From a virus, in the IMG/VR virus record IMGVR_UViG_3300025597_000012: a DNA stretch of 64,000 nucleotides; one strand, 5' to 3'. The notes beneath the pieces are model-generated. The model ran no database searches, was not told the origin of the DNA, and saw only the letters and a list, made by a program, of their open reading frames with translations. The translations under genes and the position numbers were made by a program. Of the stretch, positions 7,901-61,474 are shown piece after piece. Every line of letters begins with the position of its first letter. Position 1 is the first letter of the stretch.

Positions 7901-10900
7901 AAAGCTTTTAGCTTTTTGAAGCTCAAAGCCTTTTACCACGTTTGCTATCATAGCAGAATTAGAATACTGATAATAAATATCAGGATTCTCTGTAGAGAAT
8001 GTGGCATTTCTACCAGAGGCATCTTTAACTTGGTCTGCTTCGTAAACAGCTAAGTTCTTGATTCCCTGTTCTTTAACATAGTAACCATCATAACCATTAT
8101 CTTTGATAAGCTTTTGGAAAGCTTTATCTTCTAAGACTTGCCAGTTATGTTCTTCAGAAAGGTAGAAATTACCATTCTCATCTTCACCACCTGTTAGTCT
8201 GCTATATATAGTTTTATTGTGTTCTTTTAGGAAAGCAAGGTCTTGTTTATTCTCATAGTCAAAAGGTTTATTTGCTTTTACAAATAAAGATAAAACATTG
8301 TTACCTCTTGTCACCATAGCATAGTCTTCAGAAAAATCATACTCTGGTGATAAGAACAGACCCATTCCTCTACCTTGTGTTTTGTCAAAGATACTCCAAT
8401 TTTCAGGAGTACCATGAAACATAACCATAGGCTCACCATTAACATCAAGAACTTTAGAGTTACCAAACCAGTTCTTAAATGCTTTAGTCTTAGTTAAAAG
8501 CCATGTATCTTCATCAAGTAATGAAGGTCTTCCGTTTGGAGCTTTTCTGAAAGTACCATTCTTTTTAGCAGCTTCTTTGATTTGAGCTTTTTCCTGCTCA
8601 ATAGATGGATTCTGCCAAATAGTATCTTCTGAACCTTGAAGACTTTCAGGAGTTGTTTTTCTGAAAGTTATGGATTTATAGAAGTCTTCTTTGGTCTTAC
8701 CATTTCTTAAAGCCCAAGTAGTAGCTACTCTATCATAGATTTCAGATACAGCTTTAGCCTGAGTTGATTTAAGGCTGAATAATGTCTCCATTACTTTAGC
8801 CATACTTTTCTTATCGGCAGCCACTTGGACTGTTTCAAAAGCTCTTTTTTCAGCTTCAGCAGCTTCAGGAATAAGTCTTACCAGTGCATCAGAAACCTTT
8901 TTACCAAAGATATTCTTACCTGCTTCTGGATTATCTATGTATTGAGATACGACTGCATTAAATACATCCTCATCATTAGAGCCGGCAATACCACTCTTAT
9001 AAGGTTCTTTAATGTCAGTTAAGTTCTCTCTAACTATACTTATAAACTCTTCTTTAGGAGTTTGAATTTTCTTTTCTTCAATTCTAGCTTGCTTAACTGC
9101 TTTAGCTGCAGCGGGTTCTTGCTTAGGTTGAGGTTTTACCTCTTGTTTAGCTTCAGTAGGAGCTGAAGGTTTAACAGCAGCTTTCTGACCTTTTTGTAGA
9201 GGGAATACTCTTAAAGAAAACTGTTTGAATACATCAGGTTGAGCTGCTATTGAAAGAGAGTTATTAAGTTGGTCTTGAGTAACTTCTGCGTCATTCAAGA
9301 TACCTGATTTAAAGTCTTGTTTAGCAAGTGAAAGATTAAGTTTGTCTATACTCTTAGTTTCGTAAGATACTTTTCTAATCTTTTCATCAATAGCTCTAAC
9401 CATTCCGTCAAAGTCTTTGGCTTGCTTTATCTCATTAACTTTAACTCTTTTATGTATAGGATTCTCAGGGTCAACTGTTTTATTGAATACATTAAGATAG
9501 ATATTGCCTTGAGTATCAACAGTTAATTTAAGGTCAGTTCTTCTTTCATCTCTATTTCTAGAGTCTGCAATATAAAGTTTTTCTGTAAGTTCAGAATTAA
9601 TTTTATCTACCTGTGCTTTTGTTAAAGTATTAGGAAGATTTTTAAGTTCATTATATACTTCATTAAGAATCTTTTCATCAGCCGCAGAAGGTCTTGCTAC
9701 AAGATGTCTGAAAGTACTGTCAGGCATTTTCATAACATAAAGATAGCGTCTATCAAAAGATTGAATATTCTTCAGATTATTAGCAACATAAGTTACAATA
9801 TCTGTAATTTCATCTTGAGAAAGTTCTGCTTTATTAAGAATAGTAGGTTTAGTACTTCTTTCGTATTGTTTATTTTCTTTGTTATAAACAACTGGGAATG
9901 AAAGTATTGCACTACCTTTTTGACCTTTGTATGTAAGATTTTTAAGTAATGTAGAAGAAGATTCTGATTTTGAATAATTTATACCGCCATAAGAAGTTAC
10001 AATATCAAATAAAGCCTTAAGCTCCTGATTAGTAAATTCAGTTTTACCTGATTTAAATTGAGAATAGAAATGCTCACTAAGTGCTTTATAATCAGTCATT
10101 TGCTGAATAAAGTCAGAATAAGTTGAAGGTTCATTACCTGTAATTCTTTCATATTCTTCAGGAGCAATCTCAATTAACGGAGTATATTTTTCACCTCTTT
10201 TAAAATAAAGTCTATCAGCGTCACTAAGAAAACCAATAGTCTCACCTTCAAATTTTAATTCAATTTGAGTATGTGAACCTGTGTAGTAAACACCCGGAAT
10301 ATTTTTAAAACCTTGATATGCACCATGAGGAAGCCCTTTAGTGCTTTCTGCTACAGTAGCAGTAAGACCATCATAAATTTGTTGAGGTGTTTTACTGAAT
10401 AAAACTTTTCTAAGATTGTCATTATTTTTTTGACCATCTTGATAGTTTACAGAGTTAATCTTGTTAAATAAAACTGAAGGGTTAGCAACCATTTGGATGC
10501 TATTAGTCTTCACACCTTTTCTTTTCTTATCAGCTTCTTTTACACCTTCTTGAATTTCTGCAACATCCTCAGAATCAAATGTTTCGTGAGTAGGAGTATT
10601 GTCTATAAAAGTAACTGGGCCAGCAGAAGTTTGAACTTCTTTAGAAGTATTTTCTTCTAATGTAGCCAGTTCTGCATCATATTTAGCATTAATTTTTTTT
10701 GAATAAGCGTTTAAACTGGATTCCTCCCCTGTTCTTTCTCCTGTTTTAGAGTATTTACCAAAAGAAGTTTGAGAATACGCAACTTTTAAGTAATCTTCTG
10801 TTGTTTGTTCTTTACTGATTTCAAAAGGAGAGTTATCATTAACATTACCATATTTATTTTTTTCAATACCTTGGTAAGCCATTCTTTTTCCATCAGGATA

Positions 10901-13858
10901 CGTTCTTATTTGAACATAAGTAATATCTCCATCATCATTAGTAAATGTAAATTCTTCTACTTTAGACGCATCTTTATCTTTATATTCATTTAATTCTTCC
11001 TGTCTTCTTTTTTCTATATCAGCTTTCTTAGCTTCTATATCAGTAGCTTTATTTTTATTTTCAGCTCTTTGAGCTTGTGCTTTCTTAGTTACTTCTGCTT
11101 TTACTTTAGAAGAAACTTTACCTTTTACTTCTTTACCGTTTTTATCAACGGCTGTAACTTCCCCATTAGGTTTAACTATATAAGTCTTACCTTCATTTTT
11201 TACAAGTACGTCTTTAGTTTCTTTCTTAGTTTCAGCAGGTTTAGCCTCAGTAGCTTTAGTAGCTGCTGCAGCTTTAGGAGCTGGTTCATCTACAACGTCT
11301 TCTACATCAGCACCATTAACATCACCGGGTTTAACTTCAGTATCTAAGAAAGGTGATTTATCAAAGTTATCTTCAGCTCTTTGATATTCAGCCATTACAT
11401 CAGCAAAGAATTTATTATATCCGTTCTTATTTGTAAGTTGCTGATAATGATAAATAGCACCATCTGTAGCACTTATAAGTTTAAATCCATCTTGTGCTTT
11501 GTTTAAAATATCATAAGCATCAATAGGATTAATTATTTTTTCATTACTAAAAGTTTTGTTATTAGCATAATAATTTAATAACTCTGTAGCAGTTTTTGTA
11601 TAGTTTCCTTTATAATCATCAGCTAAAGCATCTTTAAGTTCTTCAACTTTTTTATTTAAAAAGTCTCTTTCTTTTGTTTGCTTTTTATATAAATCGGAAT
11701 CCTTATCTTCAACATCTTTTGTTAATTCATCAATCTCTTTAACTCTTTTTTCAAATCTATTTATAGTATCTTGTACACCTTTATCATTAGTTAAATTAAT
11801 TACTTCATCAACATTAGCACCAGTGGATTGAGCTATCTCTGTAGATATTTTAGAAAGTCTTCTTTTATTATCATTAATTTCTGATAAGTTAAGACCTAAC
11901 TGTGTTTTATATTCATCAAATACAAAATAATTATTAGTTCCTTTTTTATAAGGATTAGGGAAAACTTTTTCTACTTTATCAATATTATCTTTAATATCGT
12001 GAGCTTTTTTGATAATATTATCAACAAAAGCATCTGTAGTTTTTTTGTTTTCTTCTGAGAAATTTATACCAAACATATTTTGGAACTCTTCAGGCTTAAG
12101 TTCTTTAAGCATATTAAGTTGTTCCATTCTTAAATCAAAGCGATTAGCTCTGACTCCACTTTCAACAAAGTTAAATAATTGTTGAAATTTAAGATTTTTA
12201 TGTTCAAAAATATCACCTTTAGCTAAAGCTTCATCCATAGAAGACTTAATAGATTGAGCTACTACAGCTTCATCATAAGTATTTCTAAATAAACCAGAAA
12301 GTCTTTGACTATTAAGTAAAGAAACGGCAGAATTAATTATTTGATTTTTTCCACCATCAATACCTTTTCTACGCTCAAGAGCACCTCTACCAACATGAAT
12401 AACAGCACCGCTAAGAATACCTAAGAATACATTCTCAAGACCTTCTCTTGTAGTTAGTACTTCTTTTAATCCTGTTGCTAAAGATTGGGTAAAATTATCA
12501 ACAGTATCAATATCCTTATTAGAGAATTTACGCTTATAATAATCTTCGGCAGTTCTTTGAATTACAAATTGAGAACCTTCTTCAAATCCTTCAGTAAGAC
12601 TTGTAGTTATAGGTCTAGCTATTTTACCTGCTGATTTAAATAAATCAAATTTTGTACTATTCTTTAATGTATTTTCAAATACATCCATAGATGCTTTAGA
12701 TAATGCAATATCCGCATCACTCATTACTTCAGATTGTACTGCTTTTCTAGCTGCATTTGTAGGACTAAATAGTGAACCAAAAATTTGTGAATTTGTAAAA
12801 GTAAGAAGAGCTACGTTAGCAAGCATACCAGCATTACCACCACCTCTTGCATATTCCTTAATCTGTTCTAAATCATAACCAGATGGGTCACGATGATATG
12901 TATTTCTATAATCTTCTGTTAAATTTTTTTCAATATTACGATATGTTTGATTTGCCTCAAATGTACCTTCAGCAATAGCAGAAGTACCTATAGCCAGACC
13001 ATATCTGAATTTATCAACAATATTTTTTGTTTTATTAGCTGCATTTATAGTAGCAAGAAGTTCATCGGCCTTATCTAAAGATTCAATAACAGCAGTTGAA
13101 ACTCTTTTTTCAGCAGTAAAGTATTTTCCTATTTTACCAAAAGCACTCATTATTTGAGAGCTTACTAATGGAACATCACCAACACCTCCAGTTAAAACTC
13201 CAACTACAGCATCTTCAGCAATAGCACCACCAATAGCACCTGCAGTGAAGCCAAGGTTATTTAATAAAGTACTCCAGTTATTAGCAGAACCATTAGTAAA
13301 AGGAATCCAACTAGCAATAGGATGTAACTGATTAGCAGTAGATTGATATGTAGGATGACTTATTTCTAAATTTTCCATCATATCTGCAATAGAATTTGCT
13401 AATTTTCCATTATATGTTTTATCTATATCTCCTGATGATAAAGCATCTAAAGTTTGGGGAACAGCAACAATAGCTTGTGCAAAAGAACCTGTAGTATTAC
13501 CTAAAAATTTTAAAATATTATTTCCCCATGTAGTCCAAGCACTTTGTCTATCACCATATTGAGCTTCTTGATTTGTATTATATGGGTCAAATCCATAAAT
13601 AGGTGACTGATATCTTAGAGTTTGTTCAAGAGGTGTTCTAACAGGCTGATTTATTTCTAAAGAAGATGACCAAGGTGCAGATTCAGTTCTTACTTTATCA
13701 AAGATACTTGATAAGATTTCTTTAGGAGAAGGAGTAACCTGAGCACCCGGAACATTAGGCATAGGCTGAGTATGTAACTCAGGACTAACTAAGTTATTCA
13801 TTCCTGTATTCAGGAAATCCAAGTTTCTGTTATATGTACCATTTGGAACGTCAGGCAT
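1979..13858 (-). CDS. Giant 3959-aa virion-associated polyvalent protein (two zincin HExxH motifs plus an ART-like domain)
   Basis: Single uninterrupted ORF. HELAH lies at nt 6629-6643 and HEYLH at nt 5429-5443. An ART-like segment at nt ~8040-8480 reads GEPMVMFHGT...LFLSPEYDFSEDYA...LAVYEADQVK. The N-terminus is Gly/Ala-rich and hydrophobic, and there is a hydrophobic segment near the C-terminus. K/E/Q/P low-complexity linkers are present. The gene sits in the tail/virion module. Confidence 0.6.
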   Translation of the reverse strand: MPDVPNGTYNRNLDFLNTGMNNLVSPELHTQPMPNVPGAQVTPSPKEILSSIFDKVRTESAPWSSSLEINQPVRTPLEQTLRYQSPIYGFDPYNTNQEAQYGDRQSAWTTWGNNILKFLGNTTGSFAQAIVAVPQTLDALSSGDIDKTYNGKLANSIADMMENLEISHPTYQSTANQLHPIASWIPFTNGSANNWSTLLNNLGFTAGAIGGAIAEDAVVGVLTGGVGDVPLVSSQIMSAFGKIGKYFTAEKRVSTAVIESLDKADELLATINAANKTKNIVDKFRYGLAIGTSAIAEGTFEANQTYRNIEKNLTEDYRNTYHRDPSGYDLEQIKEYARGGGNAGMLANVALLTFTNSQIFGSLFSPTNAARKAVQSEVMSDADIALSKASMDVFENTLKNSTKFDLFKSAGKIARPITTSLTEGFEEGSQFVIQRTAEDYYKRKFSNKDIDTVDNFTQSLATGLKEVLTTREGLENVFLGILSGAVIHVGRGALERRKGIDGGKNQIINSAVSLLNSQRLSGLFRNTYDEAVVAQSIKSSMDEALAKGDIFEHKNLKFQQLFNFVESGVRANRFDLRMEQLNMLKELKPEEFQNMFGINFSEENKKTTDAFVDNIIKKAHDIKDNIDKVEKVFPNPYKKGTNNYFVFDEYKTQLGLNLSEINDNKRRLSKISTEIAQSTGANVDEVINLTNDKGVQDTINRFEKRVKEIDELTKDVEDKDSDLYKKQTKERDFLNKKVEELKDALADDYKGNYTKTATELLNYYANNKTFSNEKIINPIDAYDILNKAQDGFKLISATDGAIYHYQQLTNKNGYNKFFADVMAEYQRAEDNFDKSPFLDTEVKPGDVNGADVEDVVDEPAPKAAAATKATEAKPAETKKETKDVLVKNEGKTYIVKPNGEVTAVDKNGKEVKGKVSSKVKAEVTKKAQAQRAENKNKATDIEAKKADIEKRRQEELNEYKDKDASKVEEFTFTNDDGDITYVQIRTYPDGKRMAYQGIEKNKYGNVNDNSPFEISKEQTTEDYLKVAYSQTSFGKYSKTGERTGEESSLNAYSKKINAKYDAELATLEENTSKEVQTSAGPVTFIDNTPTHETFDSEDVAEIQEGVKEADKKRKGVKTNSIQMVANPSVLFNKINSVNYQDGQKNNDNLRKVLFSKTPQQIYDGLTATVAESTKGLPHGAYQGFKNIPGVYYTGSHTQIELKFEGETIGFLSDADRLYFKRGEKYTPLIEIAPEEYERITGNEPSTYSDFIQQMTDYKALSEHFYSQFKSGKTEFTNQELKALFDIVTSYGGINYSKSESSSTLLKNLTYKGQKGSAILSFPVVYNKENKQYERSTKPTILNKAELSQDEITDIVTYVANNLKNIQSFDRRYLYVMKMPDSTFRHLVARPSAADEKILNEVYNELKNLPNTLTKAQVDKINSELTEKLYIADSRNRDERRTDLKLTVDTQGNIYLNVFNKTVDPENPIHKRVKVNEIKQAKDFDGMVRAIDEKIRKVSYETKSIDKLNLSLAKQDFKSGILNDAEVTQDQLNNSLSIAAQPDVFKQFSLRVFPLQKGQKAAVKPSAPTEAKQEVKPQPKQEPAAAKAVKQARIEEKKIQTPKEEFISIVRENLTDIKEPYKSGIAGSNDEDVFNAVVSQYIDNPEAGKNIFGKKVSDALVRLIPEAAEAEKRAFETVQVAADKKSMAKVMETLFSLKSTQAKAVSEIYDRVATTWALRNGKTKEDFYKSITFRKTTPESLQGSEDTIWQNPSIEQEKAQIKEAAKKNGTFRKAPNGRPSLLDEDTWLLTKTKAFKNWFGNSKVLDVNGEPMVMFHGTPENWSIFDKTQGRGMGLFLSPEYDFSEDYAMVTRGNNVLSLFVKANKPFDYENKQDLAFLKEHNKTIYSRLTGGEDENGNFYLSEEHNWQVLEDKAFQKLIKDNGYDGYYVKEQGIKNLAVYEADQVKDASGRNATFSTENPDIYYQYSNSAMIANVVKGFELQKAKSFGNLAFQTKNGKATPELAKKINKWLADNGYGNTLKFVYEATHGTVNPFINEGNLLFQNQSVESKLRIPVANILENISKIKNPTNFITDISKGLKVFRDGTEFVTEEEYKNQLISNFGRIVDYIDKETLSQFKQIFNLTDAEIEALNGITQQYDSIKVGLSGLWNRFNNGHGGLDKEATLTNIKIGSFVTRLRSILREFNVTDKDIENNSYEDKIINSPFVRDDNVHYILAEASLYKKLLKVDQTETFRKVQDISKLISNITSDEQKVIEDRLSNSIYNQLKNHLNIEGGTNTRTREDKYKGAIQLYNLVKNNLDSVTEDDFDSITEYLEFKNNIEAKLSEIKEQIKKLKNSEHRFTRLLKPTYSGRPEFSDNDLKRNDTSKIANWTNVQFNQGPKGAIRLLGDSQAIIYSLTNPDVSTPLHELAHYWEGQLTDTERADVLEWAGTEDWSRETSEKFARGFEKYLADGEAPTSTLQKLFDNFKKWLTDIYKGIVGSDIDVTLNDSMKKIYAAMLGEKYETVIKEEVKTEQEEEKKVEEAQAEEPAPVPTKAITRKELSIRTTGDGLVEIKHNGTLINTIDEFDGAWYDEAGDAIGLNKDEAIQSIIDKLNAGNTQEKEITPAQETETQQTEPVEQQTEEQPQPEEERIPEVFTKEDVGSKVMYNGKELTVTEVNEGLDKETPFGTVKGTTFVTITDGTKYGEQIVASDKLTKVAPEIQEETEEPFDEGVLKEIVIPKSYDTDYSENHKTEYGKQNEPFTVSTEDEDNLTVDYVGLKVILEHLKQKYNIPYQVVDVDEDWKGKFENSVAVINLSRVSRDTPFHEYLHPFMAVLKVDNHALYTSLMEEYKALVLENDDIAGEAMSETLKSPLYKGKNKEEIQDEALVNYLGKLGARNFDRTGRFLYDKYHKSGASLARKFFDWFVSVLSGFYGALKANVKGAKAGEQGVAKIKYLPAMNLAEFADLTSSNGMPFDFTERKDLITAVKAFQADATEKTDDQKLIERIKRRLAVLDDTARRRTPSPELLSELIAVRSLLKNYDEFESINQYIYQGIDGLRYASDEFKRISGKLSDKENKLTQKDVKQLHRDLDLVRNLLAMYEDVHGLFGRVAQDLAPEAYKAMQITLAEARNIADYKIKARSIDLTAEWLFPYIEEVNERIKDKYPSYVLTKEQFKNKLYNADEDLSFLQFHLGSVGSNNDPVSAITRTALFDVMEDNHLYEAKLGEEIKIDYAKFLKAKGLANETKSTVEYYKKNFLRKATILQKTEEKDDEGKFKWAYTQKWALHQPYFYDLYTKDKAAFLETLGEMPDAPSENSTAAERALYQNYVDKIFAWEEQNGSLSKPADKYKNAEFDRLYNKDEFFTKMYDTYKEGNDKYGEEERLQFGIVPQVFDKPSQIQDVKTAEGAGNKAKVVGNKVLNFFLPKAEESTTAQNDINLDGSMYKRIKTPYVQSIDDSNVSLVLPETIFKFAGAANLVEMMREVEPNVRTLRMVLEGNAQFKMEARKIIPVTSDRKTIFDRFLKLPSKKTTAERLNKQLLSWLDDVVYGQEELQDTARIFGRAVDLNKLGGNFAFLTALNNMAFNVTAGIGNVSIGNIMTLGESLGAKYYTPADWRKAQGQYFSNFNEFMKDAFNLKKSKITQLGIKYDAIQGEFRDKYGKKFVGNATQRYANADTIFIINHAAEHQIQLVGMLSLMNATKVKTTSGETISLFDAHKINEKGFLRLRDDIIWTAEDERLFTQRLHGVNKILNGNYSKFDKVQLQRTFYGKLMLIYRKFMYNAFRSRYGRQRFDYEIGDEMEGYYRKFFSKVASDIKEMKFNAAANFFNRKGWSADEKYAYNKTMFELSLLVGMGILTIALANASGDDKDKSWLQNTLTLQMLRLRKDIGMYSIFGATDIMQVLQNPSAVILTATRYTDFFTQLVTNPTEVYKRKTGAFDKGDSILKAKLFKAIPIVRQAVNMMQPEEQLQYYRLLNKY

Positions 13859-18651: not shown

Positions 18652-19925
18652 TACGGATTCTTTTTAAATCGTGGAGAATAGAAGTTTTGTTTTTGTGTGT
18701 ATTGTATATCACCTGAACTAGGGTCAATATAATAAGGCAAATTTAATTTTTCATCCCAAAATAACTCATTTACTTGTTGAGGAACATAAGGAGAAACTAA
18801 AGACTTAGGAATAGGACTATAATCAGGAGATAATTTATTTCCATTTATATCTACATAATCAGGTACTCTATTACCAACGGTAGCATTTTCTCCCATTATT
18901 AAATTTCTTTCTACTGCAAATTTTTTAGCCTGCTTATTAGCTTCTGCTATTTGTTCTTTTGTATATCCACCAACTTGCATCTTATGTTCCTTTACAACTC
19001 CATACATAGCTACAGTATGATTAGGGCCATGTAATACAGCGGTCTTTCCTCTTTGGTCTGTTACCTTTATAGGTCTTCCAGAATCTAATCCGCGTATAAG
19101 ATTATACTGCGGTGGTAAATCAAGCGTCATACTTTGTAAAGAACTACCGTTCAATCCATTAGCTAGTTCTGTAGGTGTGCTTGCTACTCCACCCATTTGT
19201 CTTTTAGCGGGTTCTATATGCCAGTGAGGGCCAACTCCTTTTACATTTCTTTCATCAATTATTTCATAACCTTGACTTTGCATATATGCTCTTCCTTCAG
19301 GAGAAGCAAAAAAAGCATCTGTCTTAGGCTCTGTTCTAATATCGGCAGCTCTACCAGTTAAGTGAAACGAGTTCTTTGCAGAACCAGTTATCTTACTATT
19401 TTCTTGAGGTGTTCTAAGTCCACTTGTTACTGTAAAATTTCCTATTTTTGATTTAATCCCTGATAATACTCCAGTTAATTGATTAGATAATCCTTGTGAG
19501 CTAACTCCTTGTTTAAAAGATATTCCTTCTGCGCTTGGTGTTCTAGACACATTTGTATTAGGAGTTGAAGCAGGAGTTCCACTAACTTCCTCATCACTAA
19601 AAGTTATAGGCATATTATCATCATCCTGAAAAATAAAATTTAGGAAGGGGTCATTAAAATCCTTACCTATAGTTTGATTTCTTTGTAAACTTTCAAGTTG
19701 GCTAGCAAGGTCATTATATTTACCTAAAAGCTCCTGATAATTATCATCTCCAATATCTGAAGACGTTGTTTCGGCAGCCTCTTCGGTATTATTATCTTCA
19801 CTCTCTTGTTCGTCCTGTTGTGGTTGCTGTTGATTAGCTTGTAAATAACTAGCTACCTGATTAAAAAAATCAGTACTATATAAATCATTTTGACCACCAA
19901 CTTGATATTTAGATTTCTTTCTCAT
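18651..19925 (-). CDS. Virion-associated peptidoglycan peptidase, M15A-like
   Basis: The segment SGLRTPQENSKITGSAKNSFHLTGRAADI...GPHWHIE fits the M15 zinc-ligand pattern HxxxxxxD...H. Located among virion genes. Confidence 0.55.
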   Translation of the reverse strand: MRKKSKYQVGGQNDLYSTDFFNQVASYLQANQQQPQQDEQESEDNNTEEAAETTSSDIGDDNYQELLGKYNDLASQLESLQRNQTIGKDFNDPFLNFIFQDDDNMPITFSDEEVSGTPASTPNTNVSRTPSAEGISFKQGVSSQGLSNQLTGVLSGIKSKIGNFTVTSGLRTPQENSKITGSAKNSFHLTGRAADIRTEPKTDAFFASPEGRAYMQSQGYEIIDERNVKGVGPHWHIEPAKRQMGGVASTPTELANGLNGSSLQSMTLDLPPQYNLIRGLDSGRPIKVTDQRGKTAVLHGPNHTVAMYGVVKEHKMQVGGYTKEQIAEANKQAKKFAVERNLIMGENATVGNRVPDYVDINGNKLSPDYSPIPKSLVSPYVPQQVNELFWDEKLNLPYYIDPSSGDIQYTQKQNFYSPRFKKNP

Positions 19926-22900
19926 TAACTATCCCTTTTAGTTTGGTTCTCTTGTCCAAAATTAAATATAAATTTATAGTTTGAATATTTATCGTTCTCT
20001 AATCTAATTCTAGTTTGTCGTCCAGCAATAGGCTGTTTGTAAACATCTGATTTATAATAGTTAAGAGAAGACGTATTAAGTACTTTGTTTACATTAGAAC
20101 ATTCATTTTTAATAAATGGTACATTATTTGTTTGTGATTTTACAGTATCAAAGAACTGATTAAATCTCCATTTATTATCTCTGTTTGTAACAAGTATCTT
20201 AATTTTGTTATTCTCTACTTTAGGATATTGTATACTAGCAAATAAGTCTTCCTCATTTTTAACTATAAGTTCAAGAGGGCCGCTACATTGTCTATCATTG
20301 TAAATCAATGCTTTATTAAATGTTATGTTTCTTAGATATACAGTATCATATAAATTATGGTATCTAATAACATCACAATCATATTGTACTGAATTTAAAA
20401 CTCCATTTAAAAGCATAGGTTCTGATAACAACTCTATGATAAACGGATATATTTTACCATAGTAAACTTGATAAGATTTATTAGTAAGATTATGTGACCA
20501 AAGAGAACTATGAGTTAAATTATGTTCAAGGTCATTTATACCAGACTGAGTATATTCTACATCATCCACATAAAAGTTAGGTATGAATGAATGGAAAGAT
20601 ACCCATGTCTTAGTCATAAAATTATACGAAGCAGTCCATGATTTATTACAGAAATACTTAGTATTTGTAACTCTAACTACTTGATTATCGTGTATAAATT
20701 CTTTTTGAACTGGGTCATAGATTACGCCTGCATGTATCCTTTTATAGTCAAGTTTAGTTATAAAGAATCTATTAAATCTTTTATCAAAAGAGAAGTGAAG
20801 GCCGATTCCTTTAAAGTTATTATCAATATCTTTCAAGTCAATAGCTGGAAAGTCTTTAATAATCTGGAACGGAAGATTTTCTTTAAACCAGTTTTTCATA
20901 CCTGAAGCACAAAGTTCGTCAAGACTATCTGCATTTGCTCCCATATTGAAAATCTGCCCTCTCTTAGCATCAGCCCAGATATGACCAAATTCAGTATTTA
21001 ATATATCAGAATGCTGAGAACCAGCGTATCCAAGATTTGTAGCACTAAACTGTTTAGGACGAGAAGTGAATAAGCCACCATTACTGATAGCTACCTCTTT
21101 TGCATCTAGCTTTAAGGTATCATAAGAATTAAATATCTGGGATGTATTCTCAAATCTAGCAAGTATTCTATTATTCTCAATACCATCAAGTCCAATGATT
21201 CTACCTAAAGAAGCAGGTGCATCATATAGGTCGTTTGCTTTGAACACCAACCAATTATCATAAGAGTTATCATTATAAGATTCCTGAGAATTAATAATTC
21301 TATAAGGATATACTGTCTTGCAATCTTCCACTTTTATAAAAGGTTGAGTTCCGATTACACTTTCTTTATTTTGTTTAGAATATGTTTTATTATAAAAGAA
21401 GTAATTATCTTCTGTTATAGGTACATTTTTCTCTTGAAACCAGAAATTCAAATCTTGCTGGTGAGGGTAGAAGTCTTTTTCCTTAGCGTTTTCACCGTGT
21501 CTGAAATCACAGTTGACATCAGATTCTGAAAGGAAATAAGGTATTCCGTAATTATATACGTGTATGAATCCACTTTGGTTGAATAATTTTTGTTTCTTTG
21601 CATCCAGTCTTGTATTAGCAACACCGATTAAATCTGCAAAGGATGCAAGTAATTTTGTTATATCGAATGTATTTCCCGATAGTCTATCTAATAGAGGTTC
21701 AGGAGTGTTAAAATAATAGTTAGGATAACCTACATTACCTAAATCACTATATCTTACATCAGCTTCATTGTTAAATCTGAATCTTGTTTGTAAGAAGAAA
21801 GGCATCTTTCTTTTTAAGGCAAATCTAGTTATAAAGGTATCTCCACCATATAATCCATCTTGAGATGTTGTATATGTTTTACTTAAATCAAAAGTACAAC
21901 TATTTGTTTCAAGATAAGCAATATCAGTTATAGCACCGTATTGGTCAGGTACAAAATTCTTAAGTGAAGCATAATAAGAAGATATATCTTTATATACTCT
22001 TTTATTTAAATCATCTTGTTTAAGACCTTCACTATCTAAAGTTATTCTACTTGTATCTTGAGTTATTGTAGAAGGGAATCCTATTTTAGCATTATCAAGT
22101 TTAAGATATACTGAACGCTCTCTATTCCAATTATTTACATATACATTAGTATATTGATTAGCTGTTGTATTTACAGCTTCATTTACTAATTGTATAATAG
22201 GCTCAAGATAAGCACTTCTTTCAATCTTTCTTATTTTGTTACCTGTAGAATTATTTACTAGTCTAAAATTATTATACTTACCAATAGAGTTATACTGAAT
22301 AGCAAAGTTTTTTAAAGAGATAATTGATTTGAATAAATCATTCATTATATCAATTTCCTTTAAGCTCATTACAGCTAAATAAGGTAACTGTTGGAAGAAA
22401 GCACCAGCAGGATTACCAGAAGCAAGATTTAATAATTGGAATGTTTTACCATGACAAGTATTTCTTTGTACTTCTGCTACTTGTAAACTAAGAGGGTCAA
22501 GAACACTTACAGGAAGTACAGGTAATCCTGTAAAATCTTCATATTTCATTACTCCACCGGGGTCAAGAACACTTATTGGTGCATATTGAACTCCTGGAAT
22601 TGCAGGAGCTGTAGTACCTGTACCAGCAACTAAATCAATAGCTTGTGTACTTCTTGATACAATAGTTTTACACTCTTTCTCTTTTTCAGCAGAGAAAGCA
22701 GCAGCTATACCAGCAGCAAAACTTACTAAAGTTGCAGCAGTAGATAAGAACTTATATTTAGCTTGTTCTTCAGCTTCATTGAAGTATCCTTCAGATTTAC
22801 CATATTCTTCAGTCTCAAGTTTAATCTCAGTTCCTATAAAAGGATTATTAAAATGAGTATCAGGAGAATGGAAAGTATATCTTTTAGAAGGAGCAAATGT

Positions 22901-24883
22901 ATTAGGTTTAGGACTTGAGTTATTACCAAAAGTATAAGTATTTGGATTATTACTTATAAGGTTATCAGGTCTTAAATCGTTATAAGGATAATTGGGATAA
23001 TAATATGTATTACCATGCTTGTCATACTTCCACATATCATAGAGCAATCCTTTGGCAACAATAGATTTATTACCTACACGATTACCTCTTACAATACGAT
23101 ATTCTGTTATTTCATCTCTTTCTTCTTGAGTTATAATACCATCTATAACTGCTTGAGTAAGAGCTGCTTTTACAGAATTATGGTCAACTCTAAGACCAAT
23201 AGGATATATAATATTAAGGTCAAAGTAAGACTTAGCACCATTTAACCCATCGTGAATATGTGTTACACGACTGTCTGGGAATTTGTGGTGTCTAATAGGT
23301 TTACCACAAAGGTCACCCCATACTTCAGGGTCATTAGGATATGTTCTGGTTGATTCCCAGTATGAGAATTCACCATACTCCCAAGTACCATCAGATTCAC
23401 AATTAGGAATACTTTCGTGTGGTGTTCCTATAACTGTAGCTGTATTGTATACTTGCCAAAGTTTATTTCTTGTAAGACCACTACAAGTAGTATCTTCTAA
23501 TACATCATTATTAGATACAGTAGCATCTACGTTAATACCATAAGTATTAAGAAATCTCGCTTTACTAGGGCCGGGAATATGGAAAGGCCCAAGTTCTTCA
23601 CCTGTGCCTTTTACAAAAATAATAGCAAAAGGATATACCTCATCTCTTTGGTATCCTCTGAATAAAAATGAATATTTAGGGTCTTTATATATAGTTTCTG
23701 GTACAGCAATAGTCTTCCAGTAAAGAGATACATTATTAGCTACTCTTTGTAGATTAGGTTTACTGAACTCCTCTAAGTCACTGAAAAACAGAATGTTATT
23801 GGAATCAGCAATACCTCCAGCAGTTTTATAAAAAGCACTTTTCGAAAAAACATCTTCAGCAGTAAGGTTTAATAATCCTTGCTCATTACCCGAATAAGTA
23901 ATAAATTTTTGTACAGTCGGGAAAGTTCCTACAAGTTTAAATGAAGTAAAATTGTTTATTGTTTCAGCTACTATTAAATTATAATAGTCATATACTTTAG
24001 GTTCATTTAGATTACTGATTACTAATGAAATAGCTTTGTCAGTTCTGTAATCAGTATCTATAGTAATTTCTTTTGAAAAAATAGGTATTGGATTTGTAGC
24101 AGGAAAAGCATCGCTAAAAGCATTTCCTTTAACATCAGAATATTGTATAATAAACTGATAAGTACCTGCCTGTAAACTACCTCCATAAACTACCTCTGCA
24201 AAATCAATACAAGGCTTGCTTATAAGAGGATGGTAGTTTAGCTTATTACAATCAAGCTCATCTGAATATATAGGTTCGTGACAAGCATCGTTAGTATATC
24301 CAATAATCTTCTTAAAATATTGATTTATAACAAGTTGATTTGATGCATTATAATCAAAGTATAAGAATCTTCTCTGGTTTAATTTATCGGTAAAATAGAT
24401 ATTTAAACTACAATCAGTTATTTTATATCTGATTTTTACAGGATAATTTATATTAAAATTTAAACACTTATTGCTAATGATTGTACGATATACACAATAA
24501 GGTTCTTGAGTTGTTTGTTCTAAAGGAGTAGTTTCTTTTTGTGTTACACAATCTATACAACTACCCATAAGTTTATCATCCTTATTATCATCATAGGGAC
24601 ATTCAATAACTTCACCAAATTCAGAATCTCCTGTTATTGTATTTAAAAGAGCATATATTGTTCTATTTTGCTCATGTATTTTTCTTTTACCTATTACTAC
24701 ATAATTTAAAGGAAAATTTATAGCTAAAATATTACTACCTTCATTTTGAATAGACAATAAGTTTCCTTCCTGTGAATTAGATTCTACAGAACCATTTAAC
24801 ATAAAAGGATATGATGTACCATCTAGATTAGATGGAACTATATCCTTTATCATGCCTTTTCTTGGAACACTGTTAGTTATCAT
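19925..24883 (-). CDS. 1652-aa large structural (tail/host-interaction?) protein
   Basis: Uninterrupted long ORF in the structural operon. No motif recognised. Confidence 0.45.
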   Translation of the reverse strand: MITNSVPRKGMIKDIVPSNLDGTSYPFMLNGSVESNSQEGNLLSIQNEGSNILAINFPLNYVVIGKRKIHEQNRTIYALLNTITGDSEFGEVIECPYDDNKDDKLMGSCIDCVTQKETTPLEQTTQEPYCVYRTIISNKCLNFNINYPVKIRYKITDCSLNIYFTDKLNQRRFLYFDYNASNQLVINQYFKKIIGYTNDACHEPIYSDELDCNKLNYHPLISKPCIDFAEVVYGGSLQAGTYQFIIQYSDVKGNAFSDAFPATNPIPIFSKEITIDTDYRTDKAISLVISNLNEPKVYDYYNLIVAETINNFTSFKLVGTFPTVQKFITYSGNEQGLLNLTAEDVFSKSAFYKTAGGIADSNNILFFSDLEEFSKPNLQRVANNVSLYWKTIAVPETIYKDPKYSFLFRGYQRDEVYPFAIIFVKGTGEELGPFHIPGPSKARFLNTYGINVDATVSNNDVLEDTTCSGLTRNKLWQVYNTATVIGTPHESIPNCESDGTWEYGEFSYWESTRTYPNDPEVWGDLCGKPIRHHKFPDSRVTHIHDGLNGAKSYFDLNIIYPIGLRVDHNSVKAALTQAVIDGIITQEERDEITEYRIVRGNRVGNKSIVAKGLLYDMWKYDKHGNTYYYPNYPYNDLRPDNLISNNPNTYTFGNNSSPKPNTFAPSKRYTFHSPDTHFNNPFIGTEIKLETEEYGKSEGYFNEAEEQAKYKFLSTAATLVSFAAGIAAAFSAEKEKECKTIVSRSTQAIDLVAGTGTTAPAIPGVQYAPISVLDPGGVMKYEDFTGLPVLPVSVLDPLSLQVAEVQRNTCHGKTFQLLNLASGNPAGAFFQQLPYLAVMSLKEIDIMNDLFKSIISLKNFAIQYNSIGKYNNFRLVNNSTGNKIRKIERSAYLEPIIQLVNEAVNTTANQYTNVYVNNWNRERSVYLKLDNAKIGFPSTITQDTSRITLDSEGLKQDDLNKRVYKDISSYYASLKNFVPDQYGAITDIAYLETNSCTFDLSKTYTTSQDGLYGGDTFITRFALKRKMPFFLQTRFRFNNEADVRYSDLGNVGYPNYYFNTPEPLLDRLSGNTFDITKLLASFADLIGVANTRLDAKKQKLFNQSGFIHVYNYGIPYFLSESDVNCDFRHGENAKEKDFYPHQQDLNFWFQEKNVPITEDNYFFYNKTYSKQNKESVIGTQPFIKVEDCKTVYPYRIINSQESYNDNSYDNWLVFKANDLYDAPASLGRIIGLDGIENNRILARFENTSQIFNSYDTLKLDAKEVAISNGGLFTSRPKQFSATNLGYAGSQHSDILNTEFGHIWADAKRGQIFNMGANADSLDELCASGMKNWFKENLPFQIIKDFPAIDLKDIDNNFKGIGLHFSFDKRFNRFFITKLDYKRIHAGVIYDPVQKEFIHDNQVVRVTNTKYFCNKSWTASYNFMTKTWVSFHSFIPNFYVDDVEYTQSGINDLEHNLTHSSLWSHNLTNKSYQVYYGKIYPFIIELLSEPMLLNGVLNSVQYDCDVIRYHNLYDTVYLRNITFNKALIYNDRQCSGPLELIVKNEEDLFASIQYPKVENNKIKILVTNRDNKWRFNQFFDTVKSQTNNVPFIKNECSNVNKVLNTSSLNYYKSDVYKQPIAGRQTRIRLENDKYSNYKFIFNFGQENQTKRDS

Positions 24884-49139: not shown

Positions 49140-49171
49140 CAAACTTACGAAGAATTTTTCAATCCTCCAAA
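49140..49171 (-). promoter_or_regulatory. Bacteroidota-type promoter of leader L1 / tRNA array 1
   Basis: Minus strand reads TTTG-N20-TAAGTTTG. Confidence 0.65.
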
Positions 49172-49204
49172 TTTATTTTGTTAAAATAACTAAAAAGAAT
49201 TAAT

Positions 49205-58604: not shown

Positions 58605-59090
58605 TTAAATGTTAAGGAGTCTACAGATATAGCGGAAGGCAGATTTATCTTTACATTCTCCTTCAAAAAGTATTTTGTCACTATTATGTATTTTAAAAAT
58701 ACTTAGATATGTAGTGTCATCTTCATCTTCTTTTTGTCCATTGAAAAAATGAATAATTCTATTTTCTTTCTCCCAAAGGTATTCTCTCCAATGAATACAT
58801 CTCCATCCCTCAGCTATTATATCTTCCTTGGTAAGATAGGGTACTCTAATAAGTCCTCTTTCCAAATTGGAGGCTAAAGTTGGGCTTCCGTCTGATAAGA
58901 ATGTTTCTTTAACCCAGTTGTCCTCAAGTACCCAGTCTGCTACAGGTTGGGGATAATCCATTTTAATTAGCTGTTCCTTAGGTATATATCTAAGGAAATT
59001 TTGTTCATACTCGTACCCGTAAATAAAGTCTTCCAGTTTAGGAGTGAAATACTTACTGTCCATTGTCTTTGGTTTTATGTGAGCCGTCAC
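58605..59090 (-). CDS. Hypothetical protein (161 aa; start may be the internal MDSKYF at 59063)
   Basis: ORF. The first ATG overlaps the upstream gene by 38 nt. Confidence 0.4.
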   Translation of the reverse strand: MTAHIKPKTMDSKYFTPKLEDFIYGYEYEQNFLRYIPKEQLIKMDYPQPVADWVLEDNWVKETFLSDGSPTLASNLERGLIRVPYLTKEDIIAEGWRCIHWREYLWEKENRIIHFFNGQKEDEDDTTYLSIFKIHNSDKILFEGECKDKSAFRYICRLLNI

Positions 59091-59271
59091 AGAAGATACC
59101 GTCTTTACTTTTCCCGCAGCGGCACAGGGCTATTGTTCCGTTTTTTGAAGTATTGAAGATTCCTTGGATACCTTGATTAGGTTGTTTATCCTTAGGGTGA
59201 AGTTCAATTTCGTAGTCGGTGCATGCTATAAGAGCAGGGCCACCTTCGAGCAGTTTAATCTTTAATGCCAT
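59053..59271 (-). CDS. CDGSH-type iron-sulfur domain protein
   Basis: CRCGKSKDGIFCDGSH fits C-X-C-X2-S-X3-(P)-X-C-D-G-S-H, with Ile at the usual Pro position. Confidence 0.65.
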   Translation of the reverse strand: MALKIKLLEGGPALIACTDYEIELHPKDKQPNQGIQGIFNTSKNGTIALCRCGKSKDGIFCDGSHKTKDNGQ

Positions 59272-59295
59272 AATATATTGGTTTTTTTAGGGGTT

Positions 59296-59544
59296 TTACT
59301 GTTTTGATGTCTTCATTGATTGATTATAAGAAGGGCCAAAAAAGGAGAAGCTTGGCTTAATGTAGGAGGAGCCTTTAACGGCGTTGCCTTCCTTCTCGAT
59401 AAACTCAACAGCTTGTCTGGCCTCTTCGTTATCCCTAGAGTCAACTACAGGGATATTAAAAGTCTCACCTTTGGTATTGGTTACCTTCAGTTGGTAGGAG
59501 CGTTCTCCGGGCGTTGTAATCTTTTCGATTTTCGTCTTATTCAT
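59296..59544 (-). CDS. Hypothetical protein (82 aa)
   Basis: ORF. Confidence 0.35.
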   Translation of the reverse strand: MNKTKIEKITTPGERSYQLKVTNTKGETFNIPVVDSRDNEEARQAVEFIEKEGNAVKGSSYIKPSFSFFGPSYNQSMKTSKQ

Positions 59545-59878
59545 TTTCAGGCGTTTTAACGGGGTTAATTGAATCTGGTGTCTCGGTCTGGGGTTCTTGG
59601 GTAGTGTCGGTTAAATCGACCGTAATAGCTTCAGGGATGGTCATAGAGGCTAACTGTTCAGGAGTAATCCTAGATAAAGGGAAAACTCCATTAGGAGTAT
59701 GAACGAATATATGGTTCTCTAGGATGGCATCCTCTATATGTAATCTGCGGCATACCTGTACATAATCTATAAAGGCTTTATAGTCGGAAGTGTACTGGAT
59801 TGTATAGGTCTTGTCAATTACACCACCTGCCTGCCCAACACTATAAGCAAATCCGGGTATTAGTTTGTCTGTAATCAT
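59537..59878 (-). CDS. Hypothetical protein (start trimmed to MITDKL; possibly leaderless)
   Basis: The -7 box ends at 59884, so the ATG at 59878 is about where transcription should start. Confidence 0.35.
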   Translation of the reverse strand: MITDKLIPGFAYSVGQAGGVIDKTYTIQYTSDYKAFIDYVQVCRRLHIEDAILENHIFVHTPNGVFPLSRITPEQLASMTIPEAITVDLTDTTQEPQTETPDSINPVKTPENE

Positions 59879-59883
59879 AACCA

Positions 59884-59915
59884 CAAAGGTAGTGTTTTTC
59901 TCTCACTTAACCAAA
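59884..59915 (-). promoter_or_regulatory. Bacteroidota-type promoter, first of the leftward transcription units
   Basis: Minus strand reads TTTG-N20-TACCTTTG. Confidence 0.6.
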
Positions 59916-61435
59916 TTTAATTTGTTAAAATAGGCCCCCGGTATTTAACATTTGAAAAAGATACCCCCGTACTTACCTAAAGGGGAAATAAGGGGAGGCT
60001 CTCACTCTTAGGAACCCGGTTATAACTCCTCCCCCGCGTTCCCTTAGTCCGTGACCTATCCCCCTGCTTAAAGCCGTAACGAATTGAGAACCAGCGACTT
60101 ACAACTATTTTCAAAGTTTTTGCCCTGAATAGTTGGAAACGGTCAGCAGGATGACCTACTTTTGTCTGGTAATCCTACCACACAGCCCAAAGGGGCAAAG
60201 CAAAGTAAGGCAAGCCGCAAGGCCATCCCTGAACTGTTCGTGGCGTGATTACCCTGCATATAAACTATAGGCAAACTTTGCCTACAGTCCAAAGTATGGA
60301 ATGTCGGAATAACTGATGTTTATTGGTGTCTATGTAGCATCCAACTCAGGTGTTAGTCTACATAGGATTAAACAGTAGGCCAGTTGACCAGTCGGGGTAT
60401 TTTTATACCTAACTGCAAACCATTGGTTAATCCAAAAAACCCGTCCTTTACGCGGGCTTGCTAAAAACAGGCTCTTAAATTGGACTCCCTAAGGGGATAT
60501 GCTTATACGATTGTGTCTGCTCATGCAGGTACATCGGTCAAGGGCAAAGTGTTACCGTCATCAGAATACAGGAACAAACCTGTATACGGTAGGGGTATAT
60601 CCCAACGCAGCCGGCTTGGTACGGACTTGGCAAGTCCAAACCATGACAATACTCGGTCAAACAACCCTGCTGTCCTAAATGGGCATCATATAGGCAGGGA
60701 CTGCGAAGCAACGTAGTGGACAACTCCCTGCTTAGGGTAGGGGTATATAGTGTCCGGTGCGTAGTGTAAAGGTGGCTATTGTTACCTGAAAGCGTAACGA
60801 AAGGAATAAACTGCAAAGTTTTTGAGGCTCGTCATGTACTAACGGGCTATTTTGCGTGTAGAATAATATTCAACCACGTTTCTGAATAGTACAAAGTAAG
60901 GTAAGCTACCTGCGAAAACGGTCTAAACGGGCTAATTGCACCCGCAAGGATTAGACTAAACTCACAATTATTTCTATAATTGAGTATAAAGCGGAAGCAC
61001 TCTTGTCATTTAGTGACAGGACTAATCTGCAAGTAAGGTATGAGGGTGGCCGCAAGGTTGCACCCTCATGTCGGGGTCAAATCCGGCGGAAGGCTCATAA
61101 CTTTCCGCCTTACCACATTTGGACACGGACGGATAACACAATAGGGGATGGGGCACGTCAAAGCACTACTAATGTAGGCGAGCACGGCACTCATTCCCTT
61201 GTTGTGTTAAAGTTGTGTTACATTTTACGTTATGTAAAGCCAGCAGTGTGCCGCGAGGTTCTTTTGCTGGCTCAATGTACTGAAAGAGAACCGTTTGCGG
61301 GTTGTTCCGTATGGGTCGGTATGTCCATATCTTTTGCTCGTAAATTGTTGATTTTCAATGTTTCAAAGGCTCTCATTAGTTATTACTGGGTCTTTATGGG
61401 GGGTGTGTCGGTACTGTCCTGCACACCCCTTTTCT
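59916..61435 (+). ncRNA. Candidate large structured RNA locus (one or several RNAs), identity unknown
   Basis: About 1.5 kb with no credible ORF and visibly higher GC. More than 20 local hairpins are present. Several are capped by GNRA loops only when read on the plus strand: gcc-GCAA-ggc at ~60212, cc-GCAA-gg at ~60943, GAGGGTG..cc-GCAA-gg..CACCCTC at ~61042-61067, and GCCAGCA..cc-GCGA-gg..TGCTGGC at ~61239-61271. The region ends in an intrinsic terminator. Confidence 0.35.
61398..61435 (+). terminator. Intrinsic terminator (plus strand)
   Basis: GGGGTGTG (61400-61407) pairs with CACACCCC (61422-61429), followed by TTTTCT. Confidence 0.65.
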
Positions 61436-61474
61436 ATTAGGATTATCGTGCCTCTTATGGCATAATGATACAAT

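Follow-up and report, generated by a model that had tools for sequence, protein, structure and literature searches.

Long non-coding early transcripts have been seen before in one cultured crAss-like phage and never explained: in the early block of Cellulophaga phage phi14:2, the g004-g005 and g005-g006 intergenic regions give rise to long non-coding RNAs that run rightward, are very abundant from the earliest time point and persist, and whose function is unassigned (Drobysheva et al., bioRxiv 10.1101/2020.03.07.982082). Here we describe a ~1.6-kb stretch without open reading frames (ORFs), at 59885-61474 of a 64,000-nucleotide stretch of DNA (the window) from IMG/VR record IMGVR_UViG_3300025597_000012, part of the ~118-kb genome of an uncultivated tailed phage. 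This divergent junction joins a conserved DNA box of about 22 nt (the C-box) to a hairpin-dense core that we tentatively interpret as a fast-evolving structured RNA.

The phi14:2 region resembles the present locus as an ORF-free stretch (~1.7 kb) in the rightward early block of a large Bacteroidota phage. It differs in following four early genes rather than occupying a divergent junction, in a G+C content (GC) of 29% compared with 45% here, and in lacking a folding excess on the plus strand (folding z score -1.5); part of it is also called as a transfer-messenger RNA (tmRNA) by the program ARAGORN, a call with no counterpart in our region.

The original prediction for this DNA had considered membership of a known class of large ornate RNAs. 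GOLLD, ROOL, HEARO, raiA and OLE do share with the locus a length of 0.5-1 kb or more, carriage by phages, tRNA genes within a few kb and many GNRA-capped helices. Families of the GOLLD/ROOL type, however, are defined by deeply conserved nucleotides and covarying helices, whereas two sequences per lineage were compared here, and the equivalent junctions of related phages share no conserved core with this one. At Rfam 15 gathering thresholds the whole window returned only 20 tRNAs, none of them in the region, and a relaxed cmscan search of 59700-61700 (E ≤ 10) gave three chance-level matches (mir-268, TMV_UPD-PK3 and snR49; 15-21 bits against thresholds of 34-47) and none to the five ornate classes. 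Assignment to these classes, to group I/II introns, tmRNA, 6S RNA, RNase P or another Rfam family was therefore not upheld. The idea of a single large conserved ornate RNA fared no better, as relatives share only the ~22-nt box, without a consensus fold, and a domain model from a relative found no match. The region is not a GOLLD/ROOL-type ornate RNA.

Hairpin-rich non-coding DNA is also known from the start of early transcription units in large phages. Promoters of the phage N4 virion RNA polymerase are three short hairpins that share a sequence and have stems of 5-7 bp and loops of 3 nt, and T7-like genomes carry promoter-rich non-coding leaders at the entering end. The present locus occupies a comparable position, but differs from N4 in consisting of ~1 kb of long, dissimilar tetraloop hairpins, and a virion polymerase was not identified in the window. 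Iteron origins are alike in being non-coding, in carrying a repeated short motif (C5 runs here) and in lying at a cumulative GC-skew minimum between divergent units. In contrast to iterons of 15-22 bp, only a 5-nt C run repeats here, at irregular spacing; apart from the leftward promoter region no adjacent A+T-rich unwinding block was found, nor was an initiator gene identified. The longest direct repeats in the region measure 11-22 nt and occur in 2-3 irregularly spaced copies, with no tandem repeats or iterons. The region contained no set of at least three regular direct repeats of at least 10 nt, only four C5 runs, and so its repeats do not support an iteron-type origin or packaging site.

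A non-coding stretch with a strand-asymmetric core

An ORF-free stretch between opposed gene blocks had been predicted, and it is real: it extends from the start of the last leftward gene (59884, or 59878) to the plus-strand ORF at 61475. Open frames within it reach at most 161 codons in the standard code and at most 196 codons with TAG, TGA or TAA reassigned. The largest ORF (61003-61440; 145 aa from a TTG start) is shortened to 78 aa in a near-identical strain variant, L003, has no Pfam match and retrieved only itself from among 1.84 billion representative proteins. These frame lengths, the truncation in L003 and the null results for Pfam and homologues ruled out a protein-coding gene, including one with recoded stops, and agree with the earlier view that the ORFs here are short and implausible. 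The stretch is non-coding.

Strong folding was confined to the right part of the stretch. Over 60471-61440 (~970 nt), the minimum free energy (MFE) of the plus strand was -345.6 kcal/mol compared with -285.8 ± 7.5 kcal/mol for dinucleotide shuffles (z -7.95), while the minus strand gave z -3.47. The two strands differed by 72 kcal/mol, and their folds contained 44 G-U pairs on the plus strand versus 16 on the minus strand. Perfect hairpins (at least 5 bp, at least 3 of them GC) numbered 18 on the plus and 10 on the minus strand. The hairpin density noted earlier needs qualifying, as within the stretch the folding excess did not extend to the plus strand of 59920-60470. Likewise, the predicted plus-strand RNA signal stood for the right two-thirds, on the evidence of z scores, G-U pairs, GNRA loops and a terminator, and failed for the left ~550 nt.

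GNRA tetraloops on GC stems had been reported for the plus-strand reading only, and this claim proved statistically significant. The motif CCGNRAGG occurred 8 times on both strands of the whole window compared with 2.1 expected, a count reached by 0 of 100 shuffles. Two of these sites lie in tRNA genes, and half of the total fall on the plus strand of the region (60215, 60942, 61050 and 61251), three of them in the right ~970 nt. Six GNRA-capped hairpins were found on the plus strand of the region versus one on the minus strand, and the core holds CCGCAAGG/CCGCGAGG tetraloop hairpins. Each copy of the AAGTAAGG repeat is followed 10-50 nt on by a CCGCAAGG hairpin.

The core ends in a clean intrinsic terminator, as predicted, with an 11-bp stem followed by TTTTCT and positioned 40 nt before the first early ORF. 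A simple terminator scan had missed this element because its loop exceeds 8 nt. The features of the stretch are collected in Table 1.

Table 1 Features of the divergent junction and its borders, in window coordinates
Feature	Position	Strand	Details
Leftward (late-block) promoter region	59884-59932	-	TAnnTTTG boxes 59884-59891 and 59912-59919 (pattern scan)
C-tract array	59933-60070		C5 runs 59935-59939, 59964-59968, 60031-60035 and 60060-60064; read from sequence
Conserved C-box	60015-60036	+	~22 nt, CCCGGTTATAACTCCTCCCCCG
Left variable segment	60085-60470		No plus-strand folding signal; folds better as minus strand
AAGTAAGG repeats	60203, 60894, 61031	+	First copy in left segment
Hairpin-dense core, candidate structured non-coding RNA body	60471-61397	+	MFE against shuffles, G-U counts, repeats, GNRA loops
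GGTAGGGGTATAT repeats	60588, 60736	+	Two copies
Hairpin with 12-bp base and GCAA-capped tip	61037-61072	+	Tip CC-GCAA-GG replaced by CCC-UGUA-GGG in L003
99-nt near-perfect hairpin	61121-61219	+	Distal ~50 nt replaced in L003 by unrelated ~30 nt, again a perfect hairpin
Intrinsic terminator	61398-61435	+	11-bp G+C-rich stem 61398-61408/61421-61431, then UUUUCU
First early ORFs (64, 82, 89, 129 and 195 aa)	61475-63351	+	Right border; synteny with L124

Five assemblies are 99.7-99.9% identical over the region, and exact look-ups of the flanking proteins returned only such copies plus L003. Although three substitutions separate L003 from the window across 2.5 kb of early genes (99.9% identical), two hairpin tips (61049-61056 and 61130-61195) are swapped in it for unrelated sequence that also differs in length. 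In either allele, each of the two hairpins nevertheless folds as an uninterrupted stem; for the long hairpin the folding energy is -45.4 kcal/mol (z -6.4) in the window and -38.8 kcal/mol (z -5.8) in L003. This perfect self-complementarity of both alleles is direct evidence that the shape of the hairpin is kept and that its tip can vary. The part of the genome searched contained no other copy that could have donated the L003 tip. Among the single-nucleotide polymorphisms (SNPs), 61151 G>A pairs with U61191 and converts a G-U into an A-U pair, and 61249 falls in an internal loop.

The GC of the region (0.43-0.45) exceeds that of the sequence to its left (~0.32), as had been noted. This elevation is not special to the stretch: a G+C-rich island of about 5 kb (~58760-63760; 0.40-0.46 versus ~0.32 elsewhere) straddles the junction and includes coding genes on both sides, so raised GC is not a mark of the non-coding part.

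The C-box and the junctions of related phages

At the left end, the two predicted minus-strand TAnnTTTG boxes were recovered, and the leftward promoters are of the Bacteroidota TAnnTTTG type. The 22-nt promoter box CCAAATTTAATTTGTTAAAATA is found again at 49167-49188, and the 13-mer ACCAAATTTAATT of this region is common to the junction of a relative, L095. The statement that the plus strand contains no TAnnTTTG was not quite right, as one copy lies at 60157-60164, about the chance expectation. From 60165 to 64000, over 3.8 kb, neither strand contains a TAnnTTTG, compared with ~1.7 per kb in the remaining window; this is consistent with an early block that does not use host-type promoters, and the higher GC may contribute.

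Next to this promoter region lies the C-tract array, whose C5 runs are spaced 29, 67 and 29 nt apart, with two G4 runs among them (59982-59985 and 59992-59995). It contains the C-box, the sole sequence common to the window and the equivalent divergent junctions of related phages. The C-box is present in Leptolyngbya phage Lbo-JY46, in IMG/VR contig L013 and in contigs L095, L124/L131 and L116/L122, taking the form AGATAGAACTACTCCCCCC in L124/L131. A second C run follows ~25 nt 3' of the box in every lineage, and several C4-C7 runs also flank the boxes of the relatives. RNAalifold, applied to an alignment of six lineages, gave no consensus RNA structure around the box, which therefore behaves as a sequence signal. 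Contig L131 starts within the C-box and contig L013 stops 53 nt past it, and these breaks are at most suggestive of a physical or coverage discontinuity.

An exact C-box scan of metagenomes (24 loci) identified true junctions only in L116/L122; the remaining loci lacked C-tract or junction context, and the L113 match lies inside a 316-aa ORF. A looser 14-base pattern gave ~120 matches in IMG/VR, none a convincing junction. In unrelated phages (L011, L012, L014 and several of L100-L123), the box core GTTATAACTNCTCCCCCG is also DNA that encodes the methyltransferase motif (V/I)IT(S/T)PPY, and this overlap with codons explains why exact scans return many coding false positives.

Between the C-tract array and the core lies a left variable segment of ambiguous strand. 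Folding of 59920-60470 gave z -0.9 on the plus and -2.8 on the minus strand, and the minus strand of 60085-60470 gave z -3.46, equalled by 0 of 100 shuffles. A 14-bp hairpin at 60261-60291 requires three G-U pairs on the minus strand, and a minus-strand hairpin followed by T6 is found at 60462-60433. The ambiguity arises because the plus-strand GCAA hairpin at 60215 sits in this segment, which folds better on the minus strand.

An ORF-free junction of 0.5-1.75 kb is kept in the relatives. In L124, a 132-kb contig, a 1.75-kb ORF-free junction precedes syntenic early ORFs, two of which match the 129-aa and 195-aa products of the window at 37% (E 1e-20) and 25% (E 1e-6) identity, respectively. 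The shared layout consists of the C-box, an ORF-free stretch of 0.3-1.4 kb, a hairpin with a T run and the syntenic early ORFs. The non-coding length past the box is at least 1.2 kb in L116/L122, ~0.8 kb in Lbo-JY46 and ~0.34 kb in L095, whose junction totals 503 nt. A hairpin with a T run stands just before the first early ORF in L124, L131 and probably Lbo-JY46, as judged by eye only, without a terminator scan or folding. Hairpins with GNRA loops numbered 12 on the plus versus 2 on the minus strand in L124 and 7 versus 0 in L131, and these counts were reached by 0 and 1 of 300 shuffles, respectively. At either end the junctions of L124 and L131 share 86-90% identity, while their central ~550 nt cannot be aligned, a pattern that resembles, on a larger scale, the conserved frame and replaced inserts of the hairpin tips. 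One sequence, AAAGTAAGGCA, is shared with the Lbo-JY46 junction; the chance expectation for such an 11-mer is ~0.4.

Searches for further relatives returned little. The region had no blastn match among 50,697 phage records; the flanking 115-aa and 195-aa proteins recovered no relatives from IMG/VR; homologue searches with the 195-aa protein and a 129-aa alignment found only the phage itself plus one relative; and 80 IMG/VR loci around RNase H-like homologues showed neither similarity to the region nor a C-box.

Several elements resembling tRNA or tmRNA were encountered at these junctions and in phi14:2. L124 (3166-3257, minus strand of the locus and thus plus in window orientation) and L131 (827-917) carry at the 3' end of the junction a tRNA-like element with a canonical T-arm (GGGTTCGATTCCC) on a 13-bp minihelix; it matches the tRNA-Sec model weakly (18.7 bits, E 1.8), and relaxed ARAGORN calls it tRNA-Glu (ttc) in these two only. 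In L124, in window orientation, the palindrome GTTCCACGTGGAAC occurs twice (~1556-1580 and ~1741-1765 of the reverse-complemented L124 2901-4900), each copy followed by a CGTGGAAC half-site, and the pair flanks the tRNA-like element shortly before the first early ORF; these palindromes look like operator sites. In phi14:2 (L099, NC_021806), the ARAGORN call is a 470-nt tmRNA at 4031-4500 on the plus strand, with tag GSSVQKLAMVA*, inside the g005-g006 region, where no RNA gene is annotated in the record and scores with the Rfam tmRNA models stay below threshold. A tmRNA or tRNA-like element in our region was rejected: none was found with default ARAGORN or Rfam, and the relaxed ARAGORN calls were implausible, one of them lying on the long hairpin.

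Interpretation of the junction and competing explanations

Our preferred account, which we hold with some reserve, is that the junction combines a conserved DNA control box with a fast-evolving, lineage-specific, hairpin-rich non-coding RNA belonging to no catalogued family. What is observed is the non-coding nature of the stretch, the strand-asymmetric fold and GNRA loops, the terminator, the conserved box and the replaced hairpin tips; that such an RNA is transcribed, where it starts and what it does are inferred. The C-tract array with its C-box would be a short DNA-level control module, recognised as sequence and not as an RNA fold, and would mark, as promoter or initiator site, where the rightward early unit starts. 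Downstream, one or a few highly base-paired non-coding RNAs may be made rightward, with the core as their body and the terminator as their stop, and read-through or a separate start would supply the early mRNAs. Such an RNA would be lineage-specific and fast-evolving, retaining its helices while exchanging hairpin tips as cassettes. By analogy with the phi14:2 RNAs, it might accumulate early in infection as a stable RNA, and could serve as a decoy, sponge or scaffold whose exposed loops engage factors of the host or the phage.

Several observations weigh against this interpretation. The adjacent early ORFs fold strongly on the plus strand (z -5.55 and -5.30; late coding regions, used as controls, gave z ~-2.2 to -2.7) and are also GNRA-enriched there, with 9 hairpins versus 1 on the minus strand, so the GC-rich island as a whole accounts for part of the signal. 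Structure is plentiful throughout this early island, and the non-coding core has the most of it, with an excess over its neighbours of ~2.5 standard deviations. The left ~550 nt show no plus-strand signal and look better on the minus strand. SNP 61303 lies in the loop of a local hairpin, yet would break a pair in the global MFE fold; a long-range helix between 60553-60590 and 61290-61321 is not claimed, as this SNP would break the predicted pairing. No recognisable host-type promoter was found on the plus strand except the chance-level TACTTTTG at 60157. Beyond the C-box, the window and the relatives' junctions show no significant similarity, and a long RNA can be dispensed with, since L095 has only ~340 nt after the box. 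When a 123-nt three-way-junction domain from L124/L131 was made into a covariance model, it matched neither the window nor five other junctions. Within the conserved 5' 300 nt of L124/L131, RNAalifold predicted 64 pairs, of which none was broken, one was compensatory and 6 were changed on one side through G-U on the plus strand, but with two sequences only this pairing was not distinguishable from shuffles (261 of 500 scored as high). The phi14:2 analogy is weak and positional only, as the phage is distantly related and differs in base composition, and when the region was compared by blastn (word size 7) with the initial 9 kb of NC_021806, the single match was an 18-nt one at chance level (E 2.3). 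The giant ORFs of the window showed neither the DFDxD motif nor a match to the solved virion polymerase; the crAss-type virion RNA polymerase that this analogy would lead one to expect was not recognised there, and a virion-polymerase transcription model is therefore not relied on.

An explanation at the DNA level, unlikely for the junction as a whole although it deserves serious weight, is that the locus is a replication origin, a packaging or terminus region or a first-entering leader, in which the C-tracts bind an initiator or terminase and the hairpins act in single-stranded or supercoiled DNA, for instance in priming or, as in N4, as promoters. The conserved part is indeed a sequence box with C5 spacings of 29, 67 and 29 nt and without a consensus RNA fold; two independent assemblies break at the box, the Lbo-JY46 record is linearised inside the equivalent junction, and the cassette-like replacement of tips could also reflect recombination at cruciforms. 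The Lbo-JY46 record nevertheless has no direct terminal repeat, at least five assemblies continue straight through the region, and there are no iterons or tandem repeats. A cumulative GC-skew minimum at ~59000 coincides with the junction, but the skew switch is also where the gene strand switches, so it is not independent evidence. What duplex or cruciform DNA leaves unexplained is the G-U asymmetry between strands, the one-strand GNRA loops and the terminator, all of them RNA features. An element acting as DNA is therefore favoured for the C-tract module and disfavoured for the core.

If transcribed, the core might instead be a long structured 5' leader that starts near the C-box, with 61398-61435 as an attenuator for the 64-aa ORF and later ORFs and with no role of its own for the RNA. 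We regard this as rather improbable. The terminator does lie only 40 nt before the first ORF with no promoter seen between, L124/L131 have the same layout, and the region and the early ORFs are alike in composition and folding bias. Against this, 1.4 kb would be very long for a leader, the length among relatives varies from ~0.3 to 1.4 kb, and no antiterminator alternative, ligand-type motif or match to a riboswitch or leader family was recognised. The phi14:2 non-coding transcripts, moreover, persist, unlike early mRNAs (bioRxiv 10.1101/2020.03.07.982082). Least probable of all, in our judgement, is a functionless spacer, decayed or rapidly turning over within a recently acquired GC-rich island, that merely holds the promoters apart and whose structure is a by-product of composition. 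The body is not conserved among relatives (even L124 and L131 differ in the central ~550 nt), a junction of 503 nt suffices for L095, and the island as a whole gives strongly negative z scores. A spacer would not be expected, however, to reach z -7.95 and exceed its flanks by ~2.5 standard deviations against dinucleotide-preserving shuffles, to keep replaced hairpin tips perfectly self-complementary in both alleles, or to enrich CCGNRAGG ~100-fold on one strand; and the region shows no trace of protein homology.

Returning to the control box coupled to a non-coding RNA, a bolder version, which we would put forward only as a speculation with a small chance of being right, is that the C-box, with the consensus CCAG[T/A]TA[T/G]AACT[A/C]CTCCCCCG and a second C run ~25 nt on, is the clade's dedicated early start signal (promoter or replication/entry site), and that its RNA represents a new class of early phage RNAs in which helices are conserved and loop cassettes can be exchanged, the hypervariable tips forming a surface of the arms race with the host. 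As far as our searches reach, a conserved C-box attached to a candidate phage early long non-coding RNA is new. The locus would be a second example of such transcripts, unrelated to the first and embedded in a syntenic series (the window, L124/L131, L095, Lbo-JY46 and L116). It offers as experimental handles the 22-nt box as a promoter or initiator candidate, a defined terminator and two hairpins with strain-variable tips. Lbo-JY46 is listed with a named host, Leptolyngbya boryana, so that experiments with it would be feasible should the isolate be obtainable. A real RNA at this locus would mean that large environmental phages regularly include sizeable, fast-evolving structured RNAs in their early programme.

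Genome context

Matching sequence is also present in ENA ERZ724020 NODE_75 and in several metagenomes of the Joint Genome Institute; samples with this phage include 3300010348, 3300009710, 3300009716, 3300009768 and 3300025678. Genes up to 59884 are nearly all leftward and include the terminase, portal, major capsid and giant structural ORFs as well as 21 tRNA genes, while small rightward ORFs begin at 61475. The large terminase is nearest to that of Leptolyngbya phage Lbo-JY46 (49%), followed by Cellulophaga Lightbulbvirus phages (31%), and is 23-34% identical to those of crAss-like phages; because of these identities we place the phage as a distant relative of the crAss-like group and not as an established member of Crassvirales.

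The giant ORFs at 1979-13858 (minus strand, 3959 aa) and 19925-24883 (minus strand, 1652 aa) contain no DFDxD and have no PDB sequence match. Among PHROGs they match nothing but families that bear the label 'unknown function' or 'virion structural protein', the 1652-aa product matching PHROG 37948 'virion structural protein' at E 3e-182. Near the junction, 59053-59271 (minus strand) encodes a phage protein of 72 aa that carries a CDGSH iron-sulfur zinc-finger domain (PF09360, E 1e-9).

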